This document shows, one piece after another, positions 15,405 through 55,746 of a stretch of DNA of 64,000 nt. The stretch lies in the sequence record SRR31156797_401; one strand, written 5' to 3'. Positions within the stretch are counted from its first letter, which is position 1. Each line of letters begins with the position of its first letter. The notes under the pieces are model-generated. The model was not told the DNA's origin. It did not search any database and worked only from the letters and a program-made list of their open reading frames with translations. A program made the translations under genes and the position numbers.

Positions 15405-16013
15405 ATGAATGACCAGGAAAAAAACACCATTGCGCAAACAGAAATCATTGTCACCGGATTTGGCGGCCAGGGCATTATCCTTGCCGGAAAAATCCTGGGT
15501 ATGGCTGCTTCCCTTGGCGACCATAAGGAAAGCACACTGGTACAGGCCTACGGCCCAGAATCCAGAGGTGGTGCATGCAACGCACAAGTAATCATTTCCG
15601 AGACCCCCATCCATTATCCCTATGTGCAGTATCCTGATATTCTGATAGCGATGTCCCAGGCCGGTTACGATAAATTTGCCGGCCAGATATCTGAAAACAG
15701 CATTCTGCTGATCGACCAGGATCTGGTACCGACCATTAATGCACCCTGTCCTGCCTACACAATCTCCTCGACAAGGATGGCAGAAAAGCTAGGACATAAA
15801 ATGATGGCGAATATCATCATGGTTGGTTTTACAACGGCAATTACCCAGCTTGTCTCCAGCAATTCTGCCCAGGAGATGATTGCTAAATCAGTCCCTAAAG
15901 GCACGGAAGAAAAAAACATCGCAGCCTTTACCAAAGGCTATGATTACGGCCTCTCTACCCTAAAGGGCCGGGAAAGAAAGGCCGCCGGTCAGGCAGGAGC
16001 CATTGTAGAATGA
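15405..16013 (+). CDS. korC: 2-oxoacid:ferredoxin oxidoreductase gamma subunit
   Basis: GFGGQGIILAG, YGPESRGG, ANIIMVG. Confidence 0.92.
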   Translation: MNDQEKNTIAQTEIIVTGFGGQGIILAGKILGMAASLGDHKESTLVQAYGPESRGGACNAQVIISETPIHYPYVQYPDILIAMSQAGYDKFAGQISENSILLIDQDLVPTINAPCPAYTISSTRMAEKLGHKMMANIIMVGFTTAITQLVSSNSAQEMIAKSVPKGTEEKNIAAFTKGYDYGLSTLKGRERKAAGQAGAIVE

Positions 16014-19000
16014 AACGCGCAAAAGAACGTTTACAAAGAGTTATAGTTATTGGTGCCACCCCGGAAGGCATTGCAGCAACCAATAAGCTTGGAGAACTGG
16101 GCGTACCGGTAACCCTGATCGAGTCTGAGCCGGATATCGACCACAAGCTGACTGCTGACAGGTTCCGGCTCCGCTCCGGCCTTAGCTTTAATTATGCCTA
16201 CCGACCAGGACTGATAAGGATCATGCGCAACAGCGCCATCCGAAGCATCCTGCCTGCCAGAATCAGCTCCATCAAACATACACCTCAAGGGTTCAGTGTC
16301 CGGGCGGTACAGGAACAGACCTTTATTGACCCTGATAAATGTACCCTTTGCGGCAAGTGCGCTGCAACCTGCCCGGTAACCACCTGTGAAGGCCTCAGCC
16401 CCATCACTTTTCACTCTCGAGTAGCGCTCCCCGGTCGCCCCTTTATCGACAAACGACAACAGCCCCTCTGCCAGGCAAATTGCCCGCTGGGAGTCAATGC
16501 CCAGGGATATGTTGCCCTGGCAGCCCAGGGGAGATACCAGGAGGCACTGGACCTGATCCGTGAACAAAACGTGCTGCCTGGAATCTGCGGCCGTATCTGC
16601 ACCCACCCCTGCGAAGATGCCTGCCGAAGGGGTGAGATTGACGAGGCCGTGTCAATACGGGCTATTAAACGATTTGTTGCCGACTACGTAGAAGGTGACA
16701 GCAAAGAGGCCTCTACAGCAGCCCCTATCACTGCTCCCCAGAAAAGAGCTGAGAAGATAGCTATTATCGGCTCCGGGCCTGCAGGCCTCGCAGCGGCGGC
16801 AGAACTTGCCAAGTTCGGTTACGCGGTAACAATATTTGAAAAAGAGACAGCAATCGGCGGCATGCTTCGTTATGGCATAGGTTCACACCGCCTACCGGAA
16901 ACAATTCTCAACCGGGAACTGGAATACATAAAACGTCTTGGCGTAAACATTGTGAACGATAGCAAGGTAGCTCTTGAAGACGACCTTGCATCCTTGCAAG
17001 AACAGTACCAGGCAGTCATCGTCGGTACCGGTACCTGGTATGACCGAAAGCTTGGCGTTCCCGGTGAGGATCTGTCTGGTATTGAAGGGTGTATTTCTTT
17101 TCTGGGAAGTGAGAAGGTGCACAACATTGATAAACTCAATGAAAAAATAGCTGTTATCGGTGACGGTAACTCGGCCTTTGACCTTGCCCGAACCTTAACC
17201 AGATTAGGGGCCGAGGTGACACTTGTATCCTGGTTTGGTAAGGACCAAATACCTGCCGATCCAGATGAAGTCCGGGAGGCAATAGAAGAGGGCATAACGA
17301 TTATTGACCAAACCCAGGTTACCGGGTTCATAGGCGAAAACAATCGGTTTACAGCACTTGAGTGCAGGAAAACAAAACAAGGAAAACCAGATACAAATGG
17401 TATCGCCTGGCCGGTACTTGACGACCAACATGCTCCTTCTGCCCTGGAATTTGATCGGGCCTTTGTGGCCGTAGGCCAGGTTGGTGGTTTTTCTCCGGAC
17501 AATACGACCCTCCCCTTTAAGATCACTGACCATGGTTTTATCGCCACTGATGCGGCTCAAAGAACGTCAACCAACGCACTGTATGCCGCAGGAGATGCCG
17601 TTTCTGGCCCCTCATCGGTTGTACACGCCATGGCCTCTGGCAAGCGGGCTGCGGCTGCAATCCATGAAGATCTTAGTGGCGAGACGGTCCTCTCCCCTCT
17701 AACCCGTCCCGAGCAAAAAGATTTCACCTCTATCCCACCAGACATCGCTTGGCATAAACGTCCGGAGATGGCTGAAAAAGAAGCGGGAGAAAGGGAGAAA
17801 GATTTCACAGAGGTAGCGCTTGGCCTCTCCAAACAGCAAGTAGAGGAAGAAGCACAACGATGCCTCCAATGTGGTGCCTGTTCCGAATGTTTTCAATGCA
17901 TTGAGGCCTGCGGTGCACTCAAAGCCATCGACCACATACAGCATGAACAGGAAATCAAGGAACAGGGAGGCGTTCTTATTGTAGCCGACCCTGCCATGGC
18001 TACCAACATCAAGGGGGAAGATGTTATTAGAGCATACGGCCCCAGGGCTGCCCGTGCCGATGTTAACGACATGACCGTGCGAGGCTTTGCCGCCGCCGGC
18101 AAAGCAATGCTGCTTCTTAGCGACACCGCTAGAAAGAAAACCAAAGGCCACGGTCTTGCCTTTGCCATGCCTGATGCGGGCCTCTCACCCGAATCGAGAA
18201 TCGGTGTTTTCGTCTGTCGCTGCAACGACTCTCTTGGCTGGATGGATGGAATGACCACCCACCTCAAGGAACAAGAGACAATCGACCCTGCAATTGTCCA
18301 CATTGAGGAACTCACCTCTGCCTGCGTCAGCGAAGGAATTGATGCCATAATAAAAGCCACCCGGGAAAAAGACCTGACCAGGATTGTACTCGGGTCTTGT
18401 GTCTGCTGCCCGCTCAACTTTGTGTGCAGCTCATGTACAGATCAGCGCAGCCGCCTCAAAGACAAACTCTTCCATGGCACAGGAATCAGCAGGTCCATGG
18501 TGGAGACTTCCAACCTGCGCGGAGAGATATTACGCCTGGTAAAAAGCAACCCTCAGCTCGCCATGAAAAGGTTCCAGGGGCTGCTCCACCGGTCAATAGA
18601 AAGGGCAAAAATTCTCAAGCCCTTACCTGCTGTTGACCGTAACTATAACTTCACGGCAGCTGTTATCGGTAATTCTGAGGCTACACTTACCAGTGCCGTA
18701 CACCTTGCCAAAACAGGGCATGATGTCTTTCGCTTCGGCACCAGGGAACAACCTCTCACCGAACCAACACCAAATGATAACATTCATAGTTTTACAGGTT
18801 GGGATGTTAAAGCACTCAGCGGTACCATTGGTGACTTTCAAATTTTGATTGAATCCGGCCAGGAGCGCCAAGTGATAAGGGCCGGGACAGTTATCCTCGG
18901 TGATAAAGCACGACGGAGCCTCCCTTATACCCATCAAGAGGGCCTCCCAACCTGCAACATAGAGCCGCTCCTGCAGCAAAAAGGGGTCGCAGGTATTCCC

Positions 19001-19408
19001 TTTGCCTATCCGTGCGCCACTTCCGTTCCGGGACTCTTTCTTGCTGAACCACCCGGTATCAACGTTTCCAAACTTAAAAAAGGCGCTGCAGCAGCGATAA
19101 TGGCAGCATCGGCCCTGCCTAGAGGTCCAAGGCAAAGTAAAGGGTTTACTGTGGTTGTCAATCAGAAACTCTGCCGGGGATGCGGTCGGTGCTCAACCGT
19201 CTGCCCGTACCATGCCGTCACCTTTCATCAAAACCAAACCGGCGGCTGGCAGTCCTCCGTGGACGAAGCTATCTGCAAGGGTTGTGGCAACTGCATTTCT
19301 GTCTGCCCAACCGGAGCTGCCGACAGCCCCTATCGAAACCGAGAATACCTTGAGCAGACCCTCGAAGAAATATTAAGCAACCAGGACATCCATGACCATG
19401 CACAATAA
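16010..19408 (+). CDS. HdrL-like multidomain flavoprotein: degenerate HdrA modules surrounding a GltD/NfnB-like pyridine-nucleotide oxidoreductase, with several Fe-S sites
   Basis: CTLCGKCAATCP; GltD-like CQANCP...CGRICTHPCEDAC, IIGSGPAG, GGMLRYGI, VIGDGNSA, AAGDAVSGP; EAQRCLQCGACSECFQC; HdrA N-terminal-like RIGVFVCRC; C-terminal CRGCGRCSTVCP and CKGCGNCISVCP. Confidence 0.85.
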   Translation: MKRAKERLQRVIVIGATPEGIAATNKLGELGVPVTLIESEPDIDHKLTADRFRLRSGLSFNYAYRPGLIRIMRNSAIRSILPARISSIKHTPQGFSVRAVQEQTFIDPDKCTLCGKCAATCPVTTCEGLSPITFHSRVALPGRPFIDKRQQPLCQANCPLGVNAQGYVALAAQGRYQEALDLIREQNVLPGICGRICTHPCEDACRRGEIDEAVSIRAIKRFVADYVEGDSKEASTAAPITAPQKRAEKIAIIGSGPAGLAAAAELAKFGYAVTIFEKETAIGGMLRYGIGSHRLPETILNRELEYIKRLGVNIVNDSKVALEDDLASLQEQYQAVIVGTGTWYDRKLGVPGEDLSGIEGCISFLGSEKVHNIDKLNEKIAVIGDGNSAFDLARTLTRLGAEVTLVSWFGKDQIPADPDEVREAIEEGITIIDQTQVTGFIGENNRFTALECRKTKQGKPDTNGIAWPVLDDQHAPSALEFDRAFVAVGQVGGFSPDNTTLPFKITDHGFIATDAAQRTSTNALYAAGDAVSGPSSVVHAMASGKRAAAAIHEDLSGETVLSPLTRPEQKDFTSIPPDIAWHKRPEMAEKEAGEREKDFTEVALGLSKQQVEEEAQRCLQCGACSECFQCIEACGALKAIDHIQHEQEIKEQGGVLIVADPAMATNIKGEDVIRAYGPRAARADVNDMTVRGFAAAGKAMLLLSDTARKKTKGHGLAFAMPDAGLSPESRIGVFVCRCNDSLGWMDGMTTHLKEQETIDPAIVHIEELTSACVSEGIDAIIKATREKDLTRIVLGSCVCCPLNFVCSSCTDQRSRLKDKLFHGTGISRSMVETSNLRGEILRLVKSNPQLAMKRFQGLLHRSIERAKILKPLPAVDRNYNFTAAVIGNSEATLTSAVHLAKTGHDVFRFGTREQPLTEPTPNDNIHSFTGWDVKALSGTIGDFQILIESGQERQVIRAGTVILGDKARRSLPYTHQEGLPTCNIEPLLQQKGVAGIPFAYPCATSVPGLFLAEPPGINVSKLKKGAAAAIMAASALPRGPRQSKGFTVVVNQKLCRGCGRCSTVCPYHAVTFHQNQTGGWQSSVDEAICKGCGNCISVCPTGAADSPYRNREYLEQTLEEILSNQDIHDHAQ

Positions 19409-21008
19409 AGAGTCCTCACCTATTAAAATTATTTTATTCCTCTGCAACTGGGGAGCCCATGCTGCCTATCAAACCCTGCAGGATGAACAGCGCCCCATCC
19501 CGGATGAAGTGCATATGGTTCGAATTCCCTGTACAGGAAGAATCGACCGTGCCCTGCTGCTCAAAGCATTTGCCATGGGGGGGGACGGGGTAGCCCTTGT
19601 CGGTTGTGATCCGGGCACCTGTAGATATGGTACAGGAACTGCCACAGCGCAGCGCAACACCAAAGACACAGGGATGATTCTGGACCTTATGGGTCTTGGC
19701 AGCGAAAGGCTGCGTTTTGCATCTTTTCTGCCGGACGAATCAGATAACCTGCTGCTCTTTCTCGAAACCTTCCTCCAGGACCTCCAACAACGGGGTAAAA
19801 CCAGTATCCAACCTGCACCAGGAGCGCACCCGGTCGACAACATCCCAATGAGTGCAGGAGCGGAGCTGCAGAAACTGATTGCCACCCATGACATTTATGC
19901 CTGCCAGGATTGCGGAAAATGTTCTTCTGCCTGTCCTCTCGCCCTGATAGGCAAACCTTTTTCAGCACGCGGCATCGCCACTGCAGCCATTACAGGTAAC
20001 CTCAATGATGCCGGGGTTAAGGAAAATGTATGGTCCTGCCTGACCTGCGGTTTATGCTTTGAGCGGTGTCCTTCTGCTGTCAACTTTCCTGAATTTATTA
20101 AAGAGCTACGCCATCTTTACAAACAAAACGACAAACATGGCGACGAAACCCATGGTGGTTTTCTTCACGCGCTGATGCGTTCCATGGCTTCGCCTGAGCT
20201 GACTCCCAACAGGTGGCAGAACATCCCCAAGGAGCTGCAGGTCGACCAGAAGAGCAACATCCTCTTTTATGGTGGGTGCGCGCCTTATTATGACATTTTT
20301 TTCAACAAACACCTGGATGTACAAACAGAAAAAATCCTGTTTGATGCCATCAGACTGCTCAACTTCTTTGACGTCCACCCACGGTTGCTCAAAGATGAAC
20401 GCTGCTGCGGTCACGATCTGCTCTGGTCTGGCGACAACGAATATTTCCTTGAAATTGCACGCCTCAATGTCGACAAATTAAACAGCCTTGGCATTGACAC
20501 CATGATCACTTCCTGTCCCGAGTGCTACATGACATTTAACACAACCTATCCGGCACACGGATTGGAACTTAATTTCAAGGTTATACACTTGTACGAATTC
20601 CTTGAAAAAGAGATTGACCGCTCTGCGGTCAGCTTCAAGCCATTGGATAAAAACATTACTTTCCAGGATTCCTGTCGCCTCACTCGCCTTGAAGGCAAGC
20701 CCGAGTTGCCCCGTCTGCTGCTGGAGCGGCTCGCTCCTGAGTCTTTTCAAGAGATGCAGGAATCTGGTAAAGCCGCTGTCTGTTGCGGCAATAGTGCATG
20801 GACCGGATGCGATGCATACAGCAAGGCAATGCAGGTAAAGCGCCTGGAGCAGGCCCGGGATACGGGAGCGGATCTCCTGGTTACAGCCTGCCCCAAATGC
20901 CAGATCCATCTCAAATGTGCCATGGAAGATCCATTACGGCTCAACAAGTTATCTATCGACATGCAGGATCTCACCAGCGTGATCGCGCAAAGTATCAGCT
21001 GGAAATAA
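19392..21008 (+). CDS. MvhD-like [2Fe-2S] domain fused to an HdrD-like region (2x[4Fe-4S] + two CCG domains)
   Basis: FLCNW, RIPCTGR, GCDPGTCRY, ERL; CQDCGKCSSACP, CLTCGLCFERCP; ERCCGH...SCPEC; QDSC...VCCGN...ACPKC. Confidence 0.9.
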   Translation: MTMHNKESSPIKIILFLCNWGAHAAYQTLQDEQRPIPDEVHMVRIPCTGRIDRALLLKAFAMGGDGVALVGCDPGTCRYGTGTATAQRNTKDTGMILDLMGLGSERLRFASFLPDESDNLLLFLETFLQDLQQRGKTSIQPAPGAHPVDNIPMSAGAELQKLIATHDIYACQDCGKCSSACPLALIGKPFSARGIATAAITGNLNDAGVKENVWSCLTCGLCFERCPSAVNFPEFIKELRHLYKQNDKHGDETHGGFLHALMRSMASPELTPNRWQNIPKELQVDQKSNILFYGGCAPYYDIFFNKHLDVQTEKILFDAIRLLNFFDVHPRLLKDERCCGHDLLWSGDNEYFLEIARLNVDKLNSLGIDTMITSCPECYMTFNTTYPAHGLELNFKVIHLYEFLEKEIDRSAVSFKPLDKNITFQDSCRLTRLEGKPELPRLLLERLAPESFQEMQESGKAAVCCGNSAWTGCDAYSKAMQVKRLEQARDTGADLLVTACPKCQIHLKCAMEDPLRLNKLSIDMQDLTSVIAQSISWK

Positions 21009-21029: not shown

Positions 21030-23459
21030 ATGACCCCAACCAACCCTCGTCAAAAATCCGCAGGGGACGAAGCTACGCCCCGCATAGGTGTCTATGTATG
21101 CCATTGCGGACTCAATATAGCCCAATCTGTAAACTGCCCACAGGTAGCAGAAACAGCCTCTGCAGCCAACGACGTTGTTCTGTCCAAGGATATTACCTAT
21201 GCCTGCTCTGAGCCAGGCCAGCAGGAAATAAAGCAGGACATTCTTGACAATCAGCTGGATCGGGTTGTTATCGCTTCCTGCTCTCCCCGGCTACATGAGC
21301 CAACCTTTAAGCAGATGGTGCAGGATGCAGGGCTTAATCCCTACATGATGGAAATGGCCAACCTGCGGGAACAGTGCTCTTGGGTGCATATGAACGATGT
21401 CGAGAATGCCACCCGCAAGGCAGAAACCCTGGTGGACATGGCGGTTTCCAGAGTACGTCATCTTGCCCCACTGACAGAAGAAACCATGCCTCTCATCAAA
21501 AAGACCATGGTCATTGGCGGTGGTATTGCCGGAATCCAGGCTGCCCTAGATCTTGCAGACTGTGGCTATGAGGTCACCTTGGTGGAAAAGCAACCTTCCA
21601 TCGGTGGAATGATGGCTCGGCTGGACAAGACCTTTCCAACCATGGACTGCTCGATCTGAATACTCGGTCCTAAGATGACGGATGCCGGTCGGCATCCAAA
21701 AATAAAGCTCCTGACCTTAAGTGAGGTCGTGGATGTGAAAGGCTATGTCGGTAATTTTGATGTTAAAATTATCAAAAAGGCAAAATATGTTGACGAGACC
21801 GCCTGTACGGCCTGCGGCGATTGTGCCACGGTCTGCCCTGTGGTACGTCCAGATGAATTTGACATGGGACTTGCTTCGCGTAAGGCCATCTACAGCCCGT
21901 TTCCCCAAGCTGTCCCATCGTCCTACCTTATCAATATTAATGAGTGCTTGGGACACAATCCGGCGGTTTGCTCAAAATGTATTGATGTATGTGATAAAAA
22001 ATGCATCAATTTCCATATGTCAGATGAGGAAATTACTGAGCATGTTGGCTCTATTATTGTCGCCACCGGATTGGAGCCCTATGACCCCACCGAACTTGAC
22101 GAATACGGGTACACCCGATTTGAAAACGTATTGACCAGCCTTGAGTTCGAGCGCCTGGTCAACGCCGGAGGACCATCAAAAGGCAACCTGGTTCGACCGA
22201 CAGACAGGAAAACACCGAAATCGGTCGGCTTCATTCAGTGCGTCGGTTCAAGGTCGCTCAGGAAAGGGGAGGAATACTGTTCCAACATCTGCTGCATGAA
22301 CACCATCAAGTCCACTTTGGTGCTCAAAGAGCATTACCCGGACATGGAAGTCAAGGTGTTTTATATTGATATCCGTGCCTTTGGTAAAGGATTTGAGGAC
22401 CTGTATACCAGGAGCCGCAGGTTAGGGGTCAAGTTCATACGAGGCCTGCCAGGATCTCTTGAAGAAACAGCAGATAATACCATGCGAGTTGCCGTTGAAA
22501 ACTCAGCCACCGGCAAACTGGAATTCCATGAACTGGATATGCTGGTACTCGCCTTAGGTGTACAACCAGCACCCAGCACCCAACGGCTCCAAGAAATCAT
22601 GGGGCTGCAGCTGACTCCAGACGGATTCTATCTGGAAGCCCATCCGAAGCTGCAGCCGGTGGATGCCGCCACCCGTGGTATTTTCTATGCCGGATGCGCC
22701 GAAGGTCCAAAAGACATAAAGGAAAGTGTTACCCAGGCTTCGGCTGCAGCTGTCAGGGCAATCCGCCTGATGCATAAAGGCGAAATCACCTCTGAACCAA
22801 TCACCTCAGAGATTGTGGTTGAGAAATGCAAAGCCTGCGGAAAATGTGCAGAGGTTTGCCCTTATAATGCAATTTCGGTTGATGTCAAAAACAAGAAGCC
22901 AGCGGTGGTTAATTCAGCGGCGTGTGCCGGTTGCGGTACCTGTGCAGCAGAATGCCACTTTGATGCCATTATCATGAACCATTACACTGACCAGCAGATT
23001 CTCGGTCAGGTGGACGCCATGCTCACCACTGAGCCGGAAACCAAAATACTGGTCTTTGCCTGCAACTGGTGTTCCTATGCTGGGGCAGATTACGCAGGTG
23101 TAGGCAGGTTGCAGTATCCTGCCAATGCGCATTTGGTGAGAGTAATGTGTTCGGGAAGAGTAGATGAGAAATTCATCTGGGAAGGATTTCGCGGCGGGGC
23201 ACCGGTGGTGCTTGTCAGCGGTTGCCACATTGGTGACTGCCACTACATCGATGCCAATCACTGGACCGAAAAGAGGGTAACGAAACTGCACAAAAAAATG
23301 AAACGGCTCGGCATCCGACCGGAAAGGCTGCAACTGGAGTGGATCAGTGCGGCTGAGGGTATCCGCTTTGCAGACAAAATGAAGGAGATGGAAGCATTAA
23401 GAAAGAGTGTCTCTGCCGAGGAGATCGAAGACACCATAGAACTGCTGACAAAACTGTGA
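21030..23459 (+). CDS. hdrA: Selenocysteine-containing HdrA with C-terminal MvhD fusion (809 aa, U210)
   Basis: The track ORFs 21030..21659 and 21675..23459 are in frame. The junction reads LDKTFPTMDCSI-TGA-ILGPKMTD, where HdrA normally has DKTFPTxDCxxC-I-L-x-P-K-M, and a SECIS-like hairpin follows. Intact GGGIAG, QCVGSR, YCSNICC and GPKDI; C-terminal CNWCSY, CSGR and GCHIGDCHY. Confidence 0.93.
21680..21697 (+). promoter_or_regulatory. Bacterial SECIS element for hdrA
   Basis: GGATGCC-GGTC-GGCATCC perfect hairpin; the loop begins 27 nt after TGA 21657-21659. Confidence 0.85.
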
Positions 23460-50027: not shown

Positions 50028-50489
50028 ATGGTTACCGAGCTACGAAAATCAGTCAGAAATCCGGATTACCTGCCAGTAACAGTTAACGCCATAAATAGTG
50101 TAGACGGCGCATTACTCGCTGGTCCTTTCTCCACCCGTATTATAGATATTTCTTCCCACGGTGCCTGCCTGCTCACGACCCAGGTCATTAAAGATCGATA
50201 TCATATTTTTCATACCGTTCAGGATCACGCATCTCATTTGCTAGAACTGACCATTAATCTACCGCCTGATCTCATTGACTACACTCTCGTCGCCCGCCCC
50301 GTCTGGATGAATATTTTCCGCCAACAGGAAATAAGCGCATTCAAACTTGGAATAGAATTCATAGAGAGCCTAGAAGGGAAAAAAATGCGGAATATAAGAA
50401 AATCACTCATGAAAGATCAGGAAAAAAGAGGCACTTGGTGGGCTCGAGCGTGCTCAACAATGAATATAACTACATCACGTAAAAAATAA
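50028..50489 (+). CDS. PilZ-domain protein
   Basis: RKSVR (RxxxR) and DISSHG (DxSxxG); RPVW...LGIEF. Confidence 0.8.
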   Translation: MVTELRKSVRNPDYLPVTVNAINSVDGALLAGPFSTRIIDISSHGACLLTTQVIKDRYHIFHTVQDHASHLLELTINLPPDLIDYTLVARPVWMNIFRQQEISAFKLGIEFIESLEGKKMRNIRKSLMKDQEKRGTWWARACSTMNITTSRKK

Positions 50490-50518: not shown

Positions 50519-52108
50519 CTAAGACACCTTTACCGAAGGAAGAGCATAGACTACCATTGGCTCTTCAATCCCCCTGAGCCTCATTTCACCCCATTTTTCC
50601 ACATGAAAAAGGTGCTGCACATCATTACGTACTGACTCTGTCAGGTATATCTGACACTGGGTTGACTCTGCCGCTAATCGTTGCGCAATATTGACCTCAT
50701 TACCAATAACGGTATAGTCAAAACGCCTTGAAGAGCCAACATTCCCCAAAAAAACGTCACCCCTGGTAATCCCTATCCCCAAATCGATATTACAAAAGAC
50801 ATCACTTCTGTTTTGCCACCGCAGGTGAATTTCTTTAAACTTTTGCCTAATCATCAATGCTGCTTCTACCGCAGCACGATTAGCGTCTTTATTGGTAACA
50901 GGAGCACCAAACATTGCCAAGACCGCATCGCCCATGAACTTATCGACAGTTCCCTGTTGCTGAAAGATAGTATCTGTAAAAATATTAAAAAAATCATTGA
51001 GAAAAGCACGAAGCCGATCCAATTCAAGTTGCTGGACCAAGGCTGTAAAATTTCGGATATCGGCAAAAAGGATGGTTACTTTCCGAATATCTCCCAACTC
51101 CATAAGCTCCGTTTCTCCTACCAGCAGGAGCTGAGCCACTTCCGGTGCCATATACTGCTCAAGCAGGGTCCTTGTGCGTGTAACTTCTTCAACCTGCCGG
51201 AGTGCGCGCACATTTTCCAAGGCCATGGCAGCCTGGCCGCAAACAACACTGACCACCTCTTTATCTGCCTCTGAAAACCGTTCATCTGTTCCAGTCTGGC
51301 TGATGTTCAACACCCCAATAATGTTCTCCCTGATAATAAGCGGGCAGGATATTGCAGAGACAATCTCAGCCCTTTTTAAAAACGGAGAAAAAATTGTGGT
51401 TTCCTGGTTTTCCTTATTTAAAATAACTGGCTTTCCATGTTTAAAAACCCAACCCGCAATGTGCTCACCTTTAGCTATCCGGACAGAGTTGGCCAACTCC
51501 AAATCCATCCCTCTAGAGGCTGCAATGTGCAGGCTTGCCTGTTTTTCATCATAAAGAAGAATTGACATATGTGAAGAACCGGTCAATTCGGCAATACTAT
51601 CAAGTACGCCTTCCAAAACTTCCTGCTCAGTGGTTGAAGAAAGAAACTGTTCGCCAAGGCTGTACAGAGGAAGCAATGTCTTTAGACGGATATTCTCGTC
51701 GTCCTTTTTTTTACGATCAATAGACTGCTTAACCATGGAGCAAAGATGTTCAGGCAGGACAGGCATTTCAAGGATACCTGAGAAGCCTGCAGAAACTGAG
51801 GCATCAAGCAGATCATTATTAACAGATGATGTTAACAAAACACCAGAGAGGCCGGGAAAATGTTTTCGTAAATCGACAAAGGCTTCAATGCCATTGACGC
51901 TGGTAGAGTCCTCGATCAGAGCTATGCTGACCTCATGATCTTTGCAAATTTGGGCGGCTTCCCTTCTCTCTGCACAGGCAATAACAGTATACTCGCTGAG
52001 TGCTGAGCAAAGGCTCGCCGCACTCACGGAATCGTTGCTCAACAGCAGAATAATCATTTTCATAAGCAGTATGGTGAGATATGCGCTAATATGGTTAAAT
52101 AATACCAC
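50519..52108 (-). CDS. Class III adenylate cyclase with pseudo-receiver and GAF domains
   Basis: LFADIRNFT, DKFMGDA, GNVGS..RFDYTVIGNEVNIAQRL; GAF segment IAGWV...PL...IIGVLNI. The true start may be 52063 or 52057. Confidence 0.9.
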   Translation of the reverse strand: MVLFNHISAYLTILLMKMIILLLSNDSVSAASLCSALSEYTVIACAERREAAQICKDHEVSIALIEDSTSVNGIEAFVDLRKHFPGLSGVLLTSSVNNDLLDASVSAGFSGILEMPVLPEHLCSMVKQSIDRKKKDDENIRLKTLLPLYSLGEQFLSSTTEQEVLEGVLDSIAELTGSSHMSILLYDEKQASLHIAASRGMDLELANSVRIAKGEHIAGWVFKHGKPVILNKENQETTIFSPFLKRAEIVSAISCPLIIRENIIGVLNISQTGTDERFSEADKEVVSVVCGQAAMALENVRALRQVEEVTRTRTLLEQYMAPEVAQLLLVGETELMELGDIRKVTILFADIRNFTALVQQLELDRLRAFLNDFFNIFTDTIFQQQGTVDKFMGDAVLAMFGAPVTNKDANRAAVEAALMIRQKFKEIHLRWQNRSDVFCNIDLGIGITRGDVFLGNVGSSRRFDYTVIGNEVNIAQRLAAESTQCQIYLTESVRNDVQHLFHVEKWGEMRLRGIEEPMVVYALPSVKVS

Positions 52109-52369: not shown

Positions 52370-53503
52370 ATGACCAAAACACTTTCTGCTAAACACCTTT
52401 TCGCAGTATTCTGCCTGCAGCTTATCCTTCTCACAACAGTCCATGCAGAAGAAGTGCCCAACCTGCTGATTTTATACTCTAATGATATCCAAGGGGAACT
52501 CAAGCCCTGTGGCTGAGGGAGCAATAAATTGGGCGGTCTGTCCAAACGCATCACCCTTGTGAACCAACTATCAAACACAACCAATACCCCGTTAGTGATT
52601 GACAGTGGCAATCTTTTTTTTAAACCCGGAATTTCTAAGCATACAAATTCTTCGGCTGCGCAAACAAAAGCTACAATAATAGCACAAACATTTCTTGCTG
52701 GCCAAAATGCCGTTGCCGCAATAGGTCGCAATGATCTCATTGCAGGCCCTTCTTTTTTAAAAAATCTAGAAAAAAATCATTCCATCCAGTTTCTCTCGGC
52801 AAATCTCGCTGAAGCAGATACCGAGACGCTCCTCTTCCAGCCCTTTACCACCAAAAAAATAGGCGAACTTCATATCGGTATCATCGGTCTCACCGGCTTG
52901 CCCCTGCCCCCCTTTCCAAATGCTCCACTTTCGCTCCTTTCCTGGGAAAAAGTTTTACCCAAACTCCTCGAACGACTCGGGTCGCAAGTCGACATGATCG
53001 TACTCCTCTCTAATCTCCCCTCACATGAAAACATAAAAATAGCCCAAAATTTCGATGCTATTAATATCATTTTCCAATCTGGAAATACCACTAAGGGAAA
53101 CGTTCCTCCAAACATAATCAGTAATACCCTCGTCTGCCAAACCACAACCAGAGGGAGGTATCAGGGAGTGCTTGAAATCAAGTGGAACGAATCTCGAAAA
53201 TGGAAAGTGCATGCCCCAACAAAAAGGGAACTCAATCAGATAAAGGCTCAACTGGAGCAGGTTAACCAAAAGATACTGGAGAGTGAACAGGAACACCCTG
53301 AGAAAGCCAGGCAAGATATTCGTTTGAAGGGACTACAGAGACTCAAGCAAAGACTGGCAGGTAAGCAGGAGCAATTACAACAACAGGCAAACAATAGCAA
53401 TAGTTCCGGAGCAACCTATAGCAACCGTTTTATTGCCCTCTCTTCCCAAGTGGAAGAAGACCAACGAACAGGAGAACTGATACGGGCAGCAAAGCTCAGA
53501 TAA
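52370..53503 (+). CDS. Secreted UshA/5'-nucleotidase-like selenoprotein (377 aa, C-G-U at 47-49)
   Basis: ATG 52370 gives a signal-peptide-like N-terminus and LLILYSNDIQGELKPCG, then TGA 52514-52516 in frame with GSNKLGGLSKR... (track ORF from 52529). Followed by a SECIS-like hairpin. UshA-like IDSG, AIGRND, FLSAN and IGIIGLT. Confidence 0.87.
52529..52545 (+). promoter_or_regulatory. Bacterial SECIS element for the UshA-like gene
   Basis: TTGGGC-GGTCT-GTCCAA hairpin (one G-U pair); the loop begins 18 nt after the TGA and shares GGTC with the hdrA SECIS. Confidence 0.78.
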
Positions 53504-53518
53504 AGACCGCACGCTCAC

Positions 53519-53554
53519 AAAAAAAAAGGGCATATCCTAACGGATATACCCTTT
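53519..53554 (-). terminator. Intrinsic terminator of ppaC, possibly bidirectional
   Basis: Minus strand: AAAGGGTATATCC-GTTA-GGATATGCCCTTT followed by a long T run. Confidence 0.85.
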
Positions 53555-53585: not shown

Positions 53586-54506
53586 TTAGCAGCCGAATGT
53601 TTTCTGCAGATTAGGAACGGTCTGCTTCTTACGACTCATCATACCATCAATCCACATGGTATTATCAGCAAGTTTTGCGTCAAATGCCTTTTCAACAAGC
53701 TCTGGCTCATCGGAAAGCACTACCAGATCAGTTCCTTCCTTCACAACATCGGTCAGCATCAACAAGATAGAGTGACGACCGTCAGCTTTCATTTCTTCCA
53801 TGGCTTTCATCAGGTCACCACGCATATCTTCAACCTGATCCAATGCTGCCAGTTCGAGCTGACCAACACCAACTTTTTTACCGTTCATGTCAAAATCTTT
53901 GTAATCACGGTTCAACAGATCCATGGCAGGAACGCCAGCTACAGCGCTTTTTGCTTTCAGCATATCCATGAACAGTCCATCAGTATCAGTTACCCCTGCG
54001 ATGGTTGCCAGTTCAGCAACTGCTTTCTTATCTGCATCTGTACAGGTCGGGGACTTGAAATTAACAGTATCGCTTAAAATCGCTGCCAGCATCAGACCAG
54101 CAACCTTAGGATCTACCGCTACTCCGTCCAGGTCATAGAGTACCTTTAAAACTGTTCCTGTACAACCTACAGGCATATTACAGAAAAAAATCGGGCTATT
54201 GGTGGTTACATCGCCAATTTTATGATGGTCAACAACGGCTACGACTTCACCATCACTGAGATTATCAGGAGCCTGATTCAAATCACTGTGGTCAACCAAA
54301 GCAACCTGCTTGCCAGCCGCGTCGGTCATCATTTCCGGCATAGCAACGCCAAAGCGCTCTAATACTGTAACGGTCTCGGGATTTGCTTCACCCTGCATAA
54401 CCGGGATATAGTCTTCGCCTTTTGCTTTCATCAATTCAGCATAGGCAATAGCAGCGGTTACGGAGTCGGTATCCGGACTTTTGTGACCAAAAACATAAAC
54501 AGACAT
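53586..54506 (-). CDS. ppaC: Manganese-dependent inorganic pyrophosphatase (family II)
   Basis: GHKSPDTDS, LVDH, VDHH, PVGCT, AILSDT..FKSPT, DYKDF, MSRKKQ. Confidence 0.96.
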   Translation of the reverse strand: MSVYVFGHKSPDTDSVTAAIAYAELMKAKGEDYIPVMQGEANPETVTVLERFGVAMPEMMTDAAGKQVALVDHSDLNQAPDNLSDGEVVAVVDHHKIGDVTTNSPIFFCNMPVGCTGTVLKVLYDLDGVAVDPKVAGLMLAAILSDTVNFKSPTCTDADKKAVAELATIAGVTDTDGLFMDMLKAKSAVAGVPAMDLLNRDYKDFDMNGKKVGVGQLELAALDQVEDMRGDLMKAMEEMKADGRHSILLMLTDVVKEGTDLVVLSDEPELVEKAFDAKLADNTMWIDGMMSRKKQTVPNLQKTFGC

Positions 54507-54801: not shown

Positions 54802-55746
54802 ATGCCAAACTCAGATAACAAACACATAAAAAGGAAAAAACCACTTACCTTCAAACGATACGGCATAGCACTGATAATTATTGCCGGCATCATTTTTGCG
54901 ATTCTTTTTACTAAAAGCAAGGATCCTTGGCAGCATCAAAAAATCAAACCGCAATCACCACCCTCACAACCTATCGTCTCTCATTCTAATCCCTCACCGC
55001 AACAAGCCCCGGACGTAACCTCACAAAAGCAGGTTGCCGAAGAAACAGCTCTCCAGCAACAACCTGTCTCATCAAGCGCAGCAACAAGGGCTGCCTTACC
55101 CGTCGATCAACAACCAGATAAAGCCCTCCAATGTGAAAAACTTGCAGTCGAGCTGCACCAATTCTTTTCCACACTGGATAGCAAACCATATATTGAGAGC
55201 TTTGGTCTACAGACCTCACTCCAAACCCACTTTATTAAGCTTATCGATTCACTTCTCAATAATCCCCCGACAGTCTCCAGAGAAACAGATGATCTCTATA
55301 CCCTTTTAACCAACATGGCTCACTTTTTTCGTATCATAGGCAAAGACAACATCCTGCTTATTAAAAGTATTCTGGATAGGGAAAGAGACGTAATCGAAGA
55401 TATCGGGCTTGCTCTATACACCTGGATAACTTCAGCTGATTGCAGGAGTGATCATTTTTCCCTGAAAGCTCCACTTGACAAGTCGTATGAGTATGCGGGT
55501 TTTTTCCTCAATACCATGGGAGGGCGCTCCTACCTCTTCCGGCGCGATTCGAGATCAAGACTTCTCGTCAACTATTATGCTGTTCTTATTGTTGATATGG
55601 CTAATACTATTGGCATCAACCGCCATGGAATTAGCATCCCGGAAGCCCTGCCTCTACTGATCGACGAAATAGAAACATCCAACCAACTTATATATAAGGA
55701 ACTTTATTTGGACCGCCTGTACCAACTGTTAGAGTCTTACCAATAA
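54802..55746 (+). CDS. Hypothetical membrane-anchored protein
   Basis: Basic N-terminus, one TM helix, a Pro/Gln/Ser-rich linker and a helical domain with FFLNTMGGRSYLFRR; 314 aa, followed by a terminator. Confidence 0.8.
   Translation: MPNSDNKHIKRKKPLTFKRYGIALIIIAGIIFAILFTKSKDPWQHQKIKPQSPPSQPIVSHSNPSPQQAPDVTSQKQVAEETALQQQPVSSSAATRAALPVDQQPDKALQCEKLAVELHQFFSTLDSKPYIESFGLQTSLQTHFIKLIDSLLNNPPTVSRETDDLYTLLTNMAHFFRIIGKDNILLIKSILDRERDVIEDIGLALYTWITSADCRSDHFSLKAPLDKSYEYAGFFLNTMGGRSYLFRRDSRSRLLVNYYAVLIVDMANTIGINRHGISIPEALPLLIDEIETSNQLIYKELYLDRLYQLLESYQ

Follow-up and report, generated by a model that had tools for sequence, protein, structure and literature searches.

We describe a gene for an UshA-like selenoprotein at positions 52370..53503 of a 64,000-nucleotide (nt) stretch of DNA from sequence record SRR31156797_401, referred to here as the window. 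Comparison with homologues shows the in-frame UGA at 52514-52516 to be a predicted selenocysteine (Sec) codon, its decoding apparently aided by a hairpin 12 nt downstream. The same comparison shows the window copy to be, as far as its sequence can be read, a derived short form that has lost the C-terminal four-haem, cytochrome c554-like domain of the long forms of its family. Within a degenerate nucleotidase-type fold, alignment shows Cys47 and Sec49, which follow strand 1 in a loop, to be the only presumptive reactive residues that are invariant across the family. The find is not new, as the family has been catalogued since 2008 and its curated name already includes the PCGU motif. Its practical value is an annotation fix, since gene callers split the gene at the Sec codon. 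The gene and its N-terminal features are as follows.

52370..53503, + strand: complete UshA-like selenoprotein gene, short form (ATG 52370, Sec TGA 52514-52516, TAA 53501-53503)
52370..52447, + strand: signal-peptide-like N-terminus, residues 1-26, read by inspection of the sequence
52508..52516, + strand: Cys47-Gly48-Sec49 motif (TGT GGC TGA), from the sequence and a 29-sequence alignment

The list of open reading frames (ORFs) for the window contains two in the same frame of the + strand, one of 48 residues with an ATG start (52370..52516) and one of 324 residues with a TTG start (52529..53503). The gap between them consists of the TGA at 52514-52516 plus four sense codons. Translating the TGA as U joins them into a single 377-residue protein in which U49 is the sole recoded codon and which begins MTKTLSAKHLFAVFCLQLILLTTVHA/EEVPNLLILYSNDIQGELKPCGUGSNKLGG... 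The default start, TTG 52529, is the codon of Leu54 and lies 159 nt after 52370, which agrees with a first-pass annotation of the window that had reported the first 53 codons missing from the ORF track. That annotation had proposed a hidden selenoprotein of exported type, cut at the TGA, and the sequence details it gave all proved correct on re-check.

The putative signal peptide was recognised by inspection and combines K3 and K8, a 13-residue hydrophobic core (LFAVFCLQLILLT) and V-H-A ahead of E27. In an AlphaFold2 model, this N-terminus is a helix (residues 8-19) followed by disorder (20-27), with predicted local distance difference test (pLDDT) values under 56. A hydrophobic N-terminal segment starts all of the family ORFs listed (45/45). 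The long forms carry motifs for c-type haem, which need export. When the three closest short forms are compared, codons 1-55 differ far less at nonsynonymous sites (dN 0.09-0.18) than at synonymous sites (dS 0.50-0.96), and the nearest relatives are collinear with the window protein; the upstream segment pointed out in the first pass is thus conserved and under purifying selection. Over the whole gene, dN/dS in the same comparison is 0.24-0.28, which argues for continued use of the protein without its haems.

The read-through protein matches the NCBIfam model NF041198 ('UshA_like_PCGU, UshA-like (seleno)protein', an equivalog model of 519 positions) with 310.5 bits against a cut-off of 275 (E 1.9e-92), over profile positions 4-375. 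This curated hidden Markov model (HMM) confirms the earlier assignment to the known UshA-like CxU/CxC kind. In a sample of 201 genomes from the order of Desulfogranum marinum, 165 contain a family member that scores above the cut-off. Of the 150 matches listed, nearly all contain exactly one in-frame TGA. Zhang & Gladyshev 2008 (PMC2398784) report 76 Sec sequences of the family from their ocean survey, under 'COG0737, UshA-like, CxU', and the family also appears in the selenoprotein tables of two reviews (PMC9312934, PMC13188914). The available portions of these three publications assign it no function, as the first-pass annotation had also held. Common as the family is in the sampled order, it has yet to receive a function in the literature searched.

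Homologues support reading the UGA as Sec. The orthologue from a Desulfobulbus metagenome-assembled genome (L001; 79% identity) reads PCGUGS, and both it and the orthologue from Desulfogranum marinum DSM 2058 (L002:6001-7146; 65% identity) are collinear with the window protein from Met1 and cover residues 1-377. The D. marinum protein reads PCGSGUGS, with a two-residue insertion between Cys and Sec that makes the motif CxxxU rather than CxU; despite this change, its UGA-to-hairpin spacing is still 12 nt. The closest database proteins have 324 or 304 residues and start just past the TGA, the same cut as in the window, and the D. marinum orthologue is publicly annotated as a 304-residue 'hypothetical protein' starting after the TGA. 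PCGU is present in all of the long-form loci fetched (30/30). In ten stop-free matches the motif is PCGC and the codon facing the TGA is TGC, so that the alignment to CxC homologues suggested in the first pass does place Cys at the Sec position. SelB scores over its cut-off in each of the four relatives' genomes with TGA homologues (4/4).

Genetic codes 4/25, in which TGA encodes Trp, were considered for the window and ruled out, as TGA is the stop codon of 19 of its 47 long ORFs. A metagenome-derived database protein of 381 residues (P0011) has 'PCGW' at the Sec position, and a related Neomarinimicrobiota locus (L004:5914-7077) has TGA there; the W of P0011 probably comes from gene calling under a code in which TGA is Trp.

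The window contains one further gene with an in-frame TGA.

21030-23459, + strand: second selenoprotein gene, HdrA2 (TGA 21657-21659; two ORFs of 209 and 594 residues in the default call)

Read through its TGA (…TMDCSIUILGPKM…), the gene matches the HdrA2 model NF040770 with 1190 bits, the cut-off being 1100. Its hairpin, GGAUGCC-GGUC-GGCAUCC, has 7 base pairs (bp) and a GGUC loop and lies 23 nt past the UGA. The presence of this second selenoprotein gene in the same window argues that the organism decodes UGA as Sec. NCBIfam 'diclust_near_Sec' is among the weak matches of HdrA2. FlpD and CCG-domain genes (16010-21008) form an Hdr/Mvh-like cluster together with this gene, and the ORF at 16010-19408 (+), which encodes a 1132-residue pyridine nucleotide-disulfide oxidoreductase/ferredoxin fusion, adjoins it.

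Directly after the UGA of the UshA-like gene, the RNA could form an element resembling a bacterial selenocysteine insertion sequence (SECIS).

52515..52558, + strand: SECIS-like element (lower stem 52515-52519/52554-52558, upper stem 52529-52534/52540-52545, loop GGUCU 52535-52539)

The upper hairpin, UUGGGC-GGUCU-GUCCAA at 52529-52545, begins 12 nt past the UGA and has a 6-bp stem. The SECIS-like hairpin noted in the first pass is thus present, with a G/U apical loop, and 57 distinct Sec loci retain it, each with a 12-nt spacer (57/57). Across 34 TGA-bearing loci, 95.6% of the cells of the 6-bp upper helix pair. The 5' arm and loop are formed by Leu-Gly-Gly-Leu codons, whose synonymous sites we compared between Sec and Cys forms after removing two off-target regular-expression matches from the Cys list. 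The first Gly codon (Gly55) is GGC in 57/57 Sec loci and 6/10 Cys forms (Fisher p 3e-4), while the second is GGT in 49 and GGG in 8 of the Sec loci and GGT in 3/10 Cys forms (Fisher p 6e-4), these p-values being indicative only, as the sequences are related. The Leu codon is CTG in 56/57 Sec loci. The Leu-Gly-Gly-Leu amino acids are kept in the Cys forms, and the synonymous sites are fixed only where the TGA is present. No Rfam model matched at gathering score anywhere in the window, although it is uncertain whether Rfam models bacterial SECIS elements of this kind.

The classification of the window protein as a short form follows from its lack of CxxCH motifs and its match to profile positions 4-375 only. 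Four CxxCH motifs are found in every long form examined (40/40; 30 Sec and 10 Cys) and in none of the five short forms (the window protein and L001-L004). The haem domain corresponds to NF041198 positions ~390-519, which are typical of the model and unnecessary for passing its cut-off. The window protein ends at the domain boundary, where long forms run into a linker and the four-haem domain. In a profile search against the PDB, the long-form tail matches cytochrome c554 (1bvb, 4e-17) and haem regions of hydroxylamine oxidoreductase, and Pfam PF13435 falls on this tail in two database homologues. PDB entry 6i5b was considered as a full-length relative and rejected, the profile match covering the haem region only. 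The window has a single family copy, and genomes G001-G004 hold short forms only; in these four genomes the haem portion of the profile gives only weak matches (E 1e-8 or worse), which fall within larger ORFs of 454-813 residues. Judged by E-value, 30 of the 201 genomes hold candidate short forms, their best match falling within the range of the verified ones (1e-70 to 1e-92).

A quick maximum-likelihood tree with an arbitrary root was built from 67 distinct proteins of the family: 45 long and 12 short Sec forms, and 10 long Cys forms. The window protein groups with L001, L002, L046 and L057 in a clade of five short forms (Shimodaira-Hasegawa-like approximate likelihood ratio test, SH-aLRT, 96) that is nested among long forms; L003 and L004 sit on long branches. 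Given the well-supported branches of this tree, the haem domain appears to have been lost at least three separate times. The window copy is one more case of domain loss and not a new principle. Some family genes (among them G147:C115:34194-35318 and G092:C40:48265-49503) have a premature TAA/TAG besides the Sec TGA, at about profile position 390-440, and L068 has a further haem-domain-like piece after the stop. These premature-stop genes look like recent truncations of the cytochrome tail.

We next consider what the remaining part of the protein can be expected to do. The AlphaFold2 model, built from the 29-sequence alignment, has a mean pLDDT of 84.6 and a predicted template modelling score (pTM) of 0.79, and divides the mature protein into three parts.

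52454..53212, + strand: 5'-nucleotidase-type (calcineurin-like) alpha/beta domain, residues ~29-281 (Foldseek; profile against PDB)
53213..53392, + strand: helical hairpin, residues 282-341 (model helices 282-307 and 312-341)
53411..53497, + strand: last strand TYSNRFIAL (348-356) and C-terminal helix (365-376) (model; alignment)

Foldseek against the PDB returned 5'-nucleotidases throughout the list, including 3ivd (4.5e-19), 2z1a (1.2e-18), CD73 entries and UshA (1ush, 1.1e-15), with TM scores of 0.53-0.63 normalised to the query. The alignment profile gave 3ivd (3.3e-26) and 1ush (2.8e-22), with a weaker match to SoxB (2wdc, 1.3e-12). Strand 1 and motif I (residues 31-40) are modelled at a pLDDT of 92. 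What had been described in the first pass as a ~55-residue coiled-coil insert is present as two predicted helices, but it is a family-wide feature with an equivalent segment in the long forms.

In calcineurin-like phosphoesterases, the motifs DxH, GD, GNHE/D, H and GHxH are what we take to be the ligands of the two metals. The window protein has D39-I-Q41, G80-N81, G119-R-N-D122 and S214-N215, and no GHxH. These are the alterations listed by the first-pass annotation (DIQ, GN, GRND, SN, GHxH lost), and they align with the motifs of 3ivd and 2z1a. Across the family, the HMM alignment with these two structures sets the nucleotidase motifs NDLHAH, DAGD, GNHEF and GHAH against the consensus s-n-d-v-r-G, D-a-G-a, g-r-k-D-L and s-g-n. 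By this alignment, the two-metal phosphoesterase centre is lost family-wide, not just in the window copy. In the 29-sequence alignment, D78 and D122 are the only acidic residues that are nearly invariant. C47 is invariant and position 49 (U/C) nearly so, and the other invariant or nearly invariant residues include G48, G55, G56, S143 and N145. A Pfam search found no domain at E<=1, including no 5'-nucleotidase C-terminal domain, and the protein ends at residue 377, in keeping with the earlier statement that this C-terminal domain is absent. Lacking both the ligand motifs and the C-terminal domain, the window protein is, to judge from its sequence, not a functional 5'-nucleotidase.

The genes on either side of the selenoprotein gene bear on its ancestry.

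50519..52108, - strand: receiver/GAF/adenylate-guanylate cyclase protein, divergent upstream neighbour, no functional link evident
53525..53554, no strand assigned: terminator-like hairpin in the gap where the selenoprotein and pyrophosphatase genes converge; a T-run follows on the - strand
53586..54506, - strand: Mn-dependent inorganic pyrophosphatase (DHH/DHHA2), convergent neighbour (NF003877, 406 bits against a cut-off of 283)

The selenoprotein and pyrophosphatase genes are 82 nt apart, terminator-like hairpin included. All of the Sec long-form loci tested (13/13) have rarA/mgsA upstream on the same strand, and 8/13 have a convergent DHH/DHHA2 pyrophosphatase gene downstream. Short forms occur in the order cyclase, short form, pyrophosphatase in the window, L001, L002, L046 and L057, and in the order rarA, short form, pyrophosphatase in L003, L054 and L063. 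Because the pyrophosphatase gene, and rarA in L003, L054 and L063, are common to long-form loci, this synteny shows the window gene to be a likely positional orthologue of the long forms. The neighbourhood analysis recommended in the first pass therefore yielded synteny with the long forms, but no clue to function from the cyclase, pyrophosphatase or rarA genes. Two further ORFs, at 50028-50489 (+) and 54802-55746 (+), encode proteins of 153 and 314 residues with no Pfam or NCBIfam match; L002 has conserved counterparts of both (83% and 71% identity), and L001 and L003 have one of the 314-residue protein.

The surroundings of the Cys forms are different. In 4/9 Cys-form loci, the gene directly upstream is yedF (TIGR03527, 'sulfurtransferase-like selenium metabolism protein'; 139-201 bits, cut-off 110), and in 2/9 it is preceded by selD (TIGR00476; 373-377 bits, cut-off 125).

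L082 (G051:C18), L083 (G068:C23), L078 (G039:C201), L079 (G096:C80): yedF-linked Cys-form long paralogues, with selD too in L082 and L083

Genomes G039 and G096 hold a Sec form elsewhere besides the yedF-linked Cys form. As all four loci fall in one Cys clade, the linkage amounts to approximately one evolutionary event. It is compatible with the handling of selenium or sulfur species, and does not establish such a role.

Leaning somewhat towards this reading over doubt, we infer that the gene encodes an exported (periplasmic) UshA-like PCGU selenoprotein in which Cys47 and Sec49 constitute a redox or chalcogen-transfer site. The two residues could be joined in a redox-active selenenylsulfide, or they could hold a sulfur or selenium atom, and the periplasmic substrate of the site might be a small inorganic compound of either element. 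In the long forms, the four haems would feed or drain electrons at the Cys/Sec site, whereas a short form would need a separate partner with which to exchange electrons or the bound atom. Most family members are fused to the four-haem domain, which lends indirect support to the 'periplasmic redox' role proposed in the first pass. A more far-reaching version, possible but rather unlikely, is that the family represents an unrecognised periplasmic chalcogen-handling enzyme of sulfur-cycling Desulfobulbales: a gutted nucleotidase/SoxB-type pocket in which the Cys-Sec pair would bind and reduce or transfer sulfur or selenium, wired to four haems. The window lineage would then have uncoupled the module from its haem wire, and the Cys paralogues next to selD-yedF would point to selenium supply. 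If this were true, the window protein would work via a separate partner or purely as a sulfur/selenium carrier.

Three other explanations have to be weighed. The TGA could be a true stop, leaving a 48-residue peptide and a cytoplasmic 324-residue protein from TTG 52529, or a decaying remnant of a long form. We consider this very improbable. It would match the default ORF call, the missing cytochrome domain and a hairpin energy that is not exceptional, but the 324-residue version would be deprived of strand 1 and motif I, which are modelled with high pLDDT. Conservation speaks in the same direction: the 48 codons ahead of the TGA are conserved, their dN being well below dS; Cys codons stand opposite the TGA in homologues; 57 distinct loci retain both TGA and hairpin; and the whole-gene dN/dS of the three short forms is low. 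Alternatively, Cys47, Sec49 and the acidic residues D39, D78 and D122 might build a new metal site, making the protein a periplasmic metal-binding or metal-dependent enzyme with no thiol/selenol redox chemistry. The near invariance of D78 and D122 and the position of C47 and U49 a few residues past motif I would suit such a site, as would the placement of the family, in the available part of PMC2398784, among the few selenoprotein families without a thioredoxin-like fold. However, five of the canonical ligand positions vary freely across the family and D39 is replaced by N in some members. The four-haem fusion is better suited to electron transfer than to metal storage, and no metal-transport genes are adjacent in the window or in the long-form loci tested, making a metal site unlikely.

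The family might instead serve selenium acquisition, reducing or capturing periplasmic selenium species and passing selenide towards YedF and SelD, with the window copy as a haem-less version. The yedF and selD genes next to Cys forms fit this proposal, and a selenium-independent Cys copy beside selD would suit selenium scavenging. YedF and SelD are cytoplasmic, however, and the protein is predicted to be exported. Moreover, the four yedF loci count for about one event, the Sec long-form loci all have rarA upstream, and the window locus has no selenium gene, so that we hold selenium acquisition to be improbable as the function of the family.

Several results also weigh against the redox or chalcogen-transfer reading itself, or against parts of it. 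The folding energy of the SECIS-like hairpin is unremarkable (z -0.72, and z +0.36 on a wider stretch), and covariation is nearly nil, with one pair changed on both sides and 75/500 shuffles reaching the observed score; covariation is almost absent because the hairpin hardly varies. As energy and covariation are uninformative, support for the hairpin comes from its conservation and from the synonymous contrast between Sec and Cys forms. No tRNA gene lies within the 64-kb window. No ORF with more than two CxxCH-like motifs is present in the window, L001 or L002, arguing against a split-off cytochrome partner nearby. The neighbours (cyclase and pyrophosphatase, and rarA in relatives) are housekeeping or signalling genes that offer no functional clue. 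Adjacency to yedF/selD is confined to one Cys clade and is not seen at the window locus. Finally, a full-text literature search found no study of, or experiment on, any family member. A Cys47/Sec49 redox or chalcogen-transfer site nevertheless remains the function we favour, and the haem-fused, haem-less and Cys forms, together with the yedF/selD-linked paralogues, make up a natural set of variants for testing it.

The window protein can be compared with several known systems. UshA-like family 2 shares the superfamily fold and is listed in the table of PMC13188914 with a Sec near the N-terminus; the window protein scores 44.4 bits against its cut-off of 140, and the motif spacing of family 2 is CxxU. 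The 5'-nucleotidases, including UshA (3ivd, 2z1a, 1ush and CD73), have in common with the window protein the fold of the N-terminal domain and the SANL and GG motifs. In the window protein, DxH has become D-I-Q, GD has become G-N, GNHE has become G-R-N-D and GHxH is absent; it is without the C-terminal substrate-binding domain, it adds a Cys-x-Sec pair, and its scores against models of true nucleotidases are under 20 bits. The thiosulfohydrolase SoxB acts on cysteine-bound sulfur species in the periplasm. SoxB (TIGR04486; PDB 2wdc) belongs to the same superfamily and is the best NCBIfam match below cut-off (E 3.5e-14), but identity with SoxB is ruled out by a score of 52 bits against a cut-off of 550, and SoxB requires the two-metal site that the window protein has lost. 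The closest correspondence is with the UshA-like CxU family of NF041198 itself, with which the window protein shares P-C-G-U, a putative export signal at the N-terminus, the degenerate 5'-nucleotidase-type domain, the helical hairpin and a SECIS-like hairpin at 12 nt. Typical members of that family differ from it in carrying the cytochrome c554-like domain with four CxxCH motifs.

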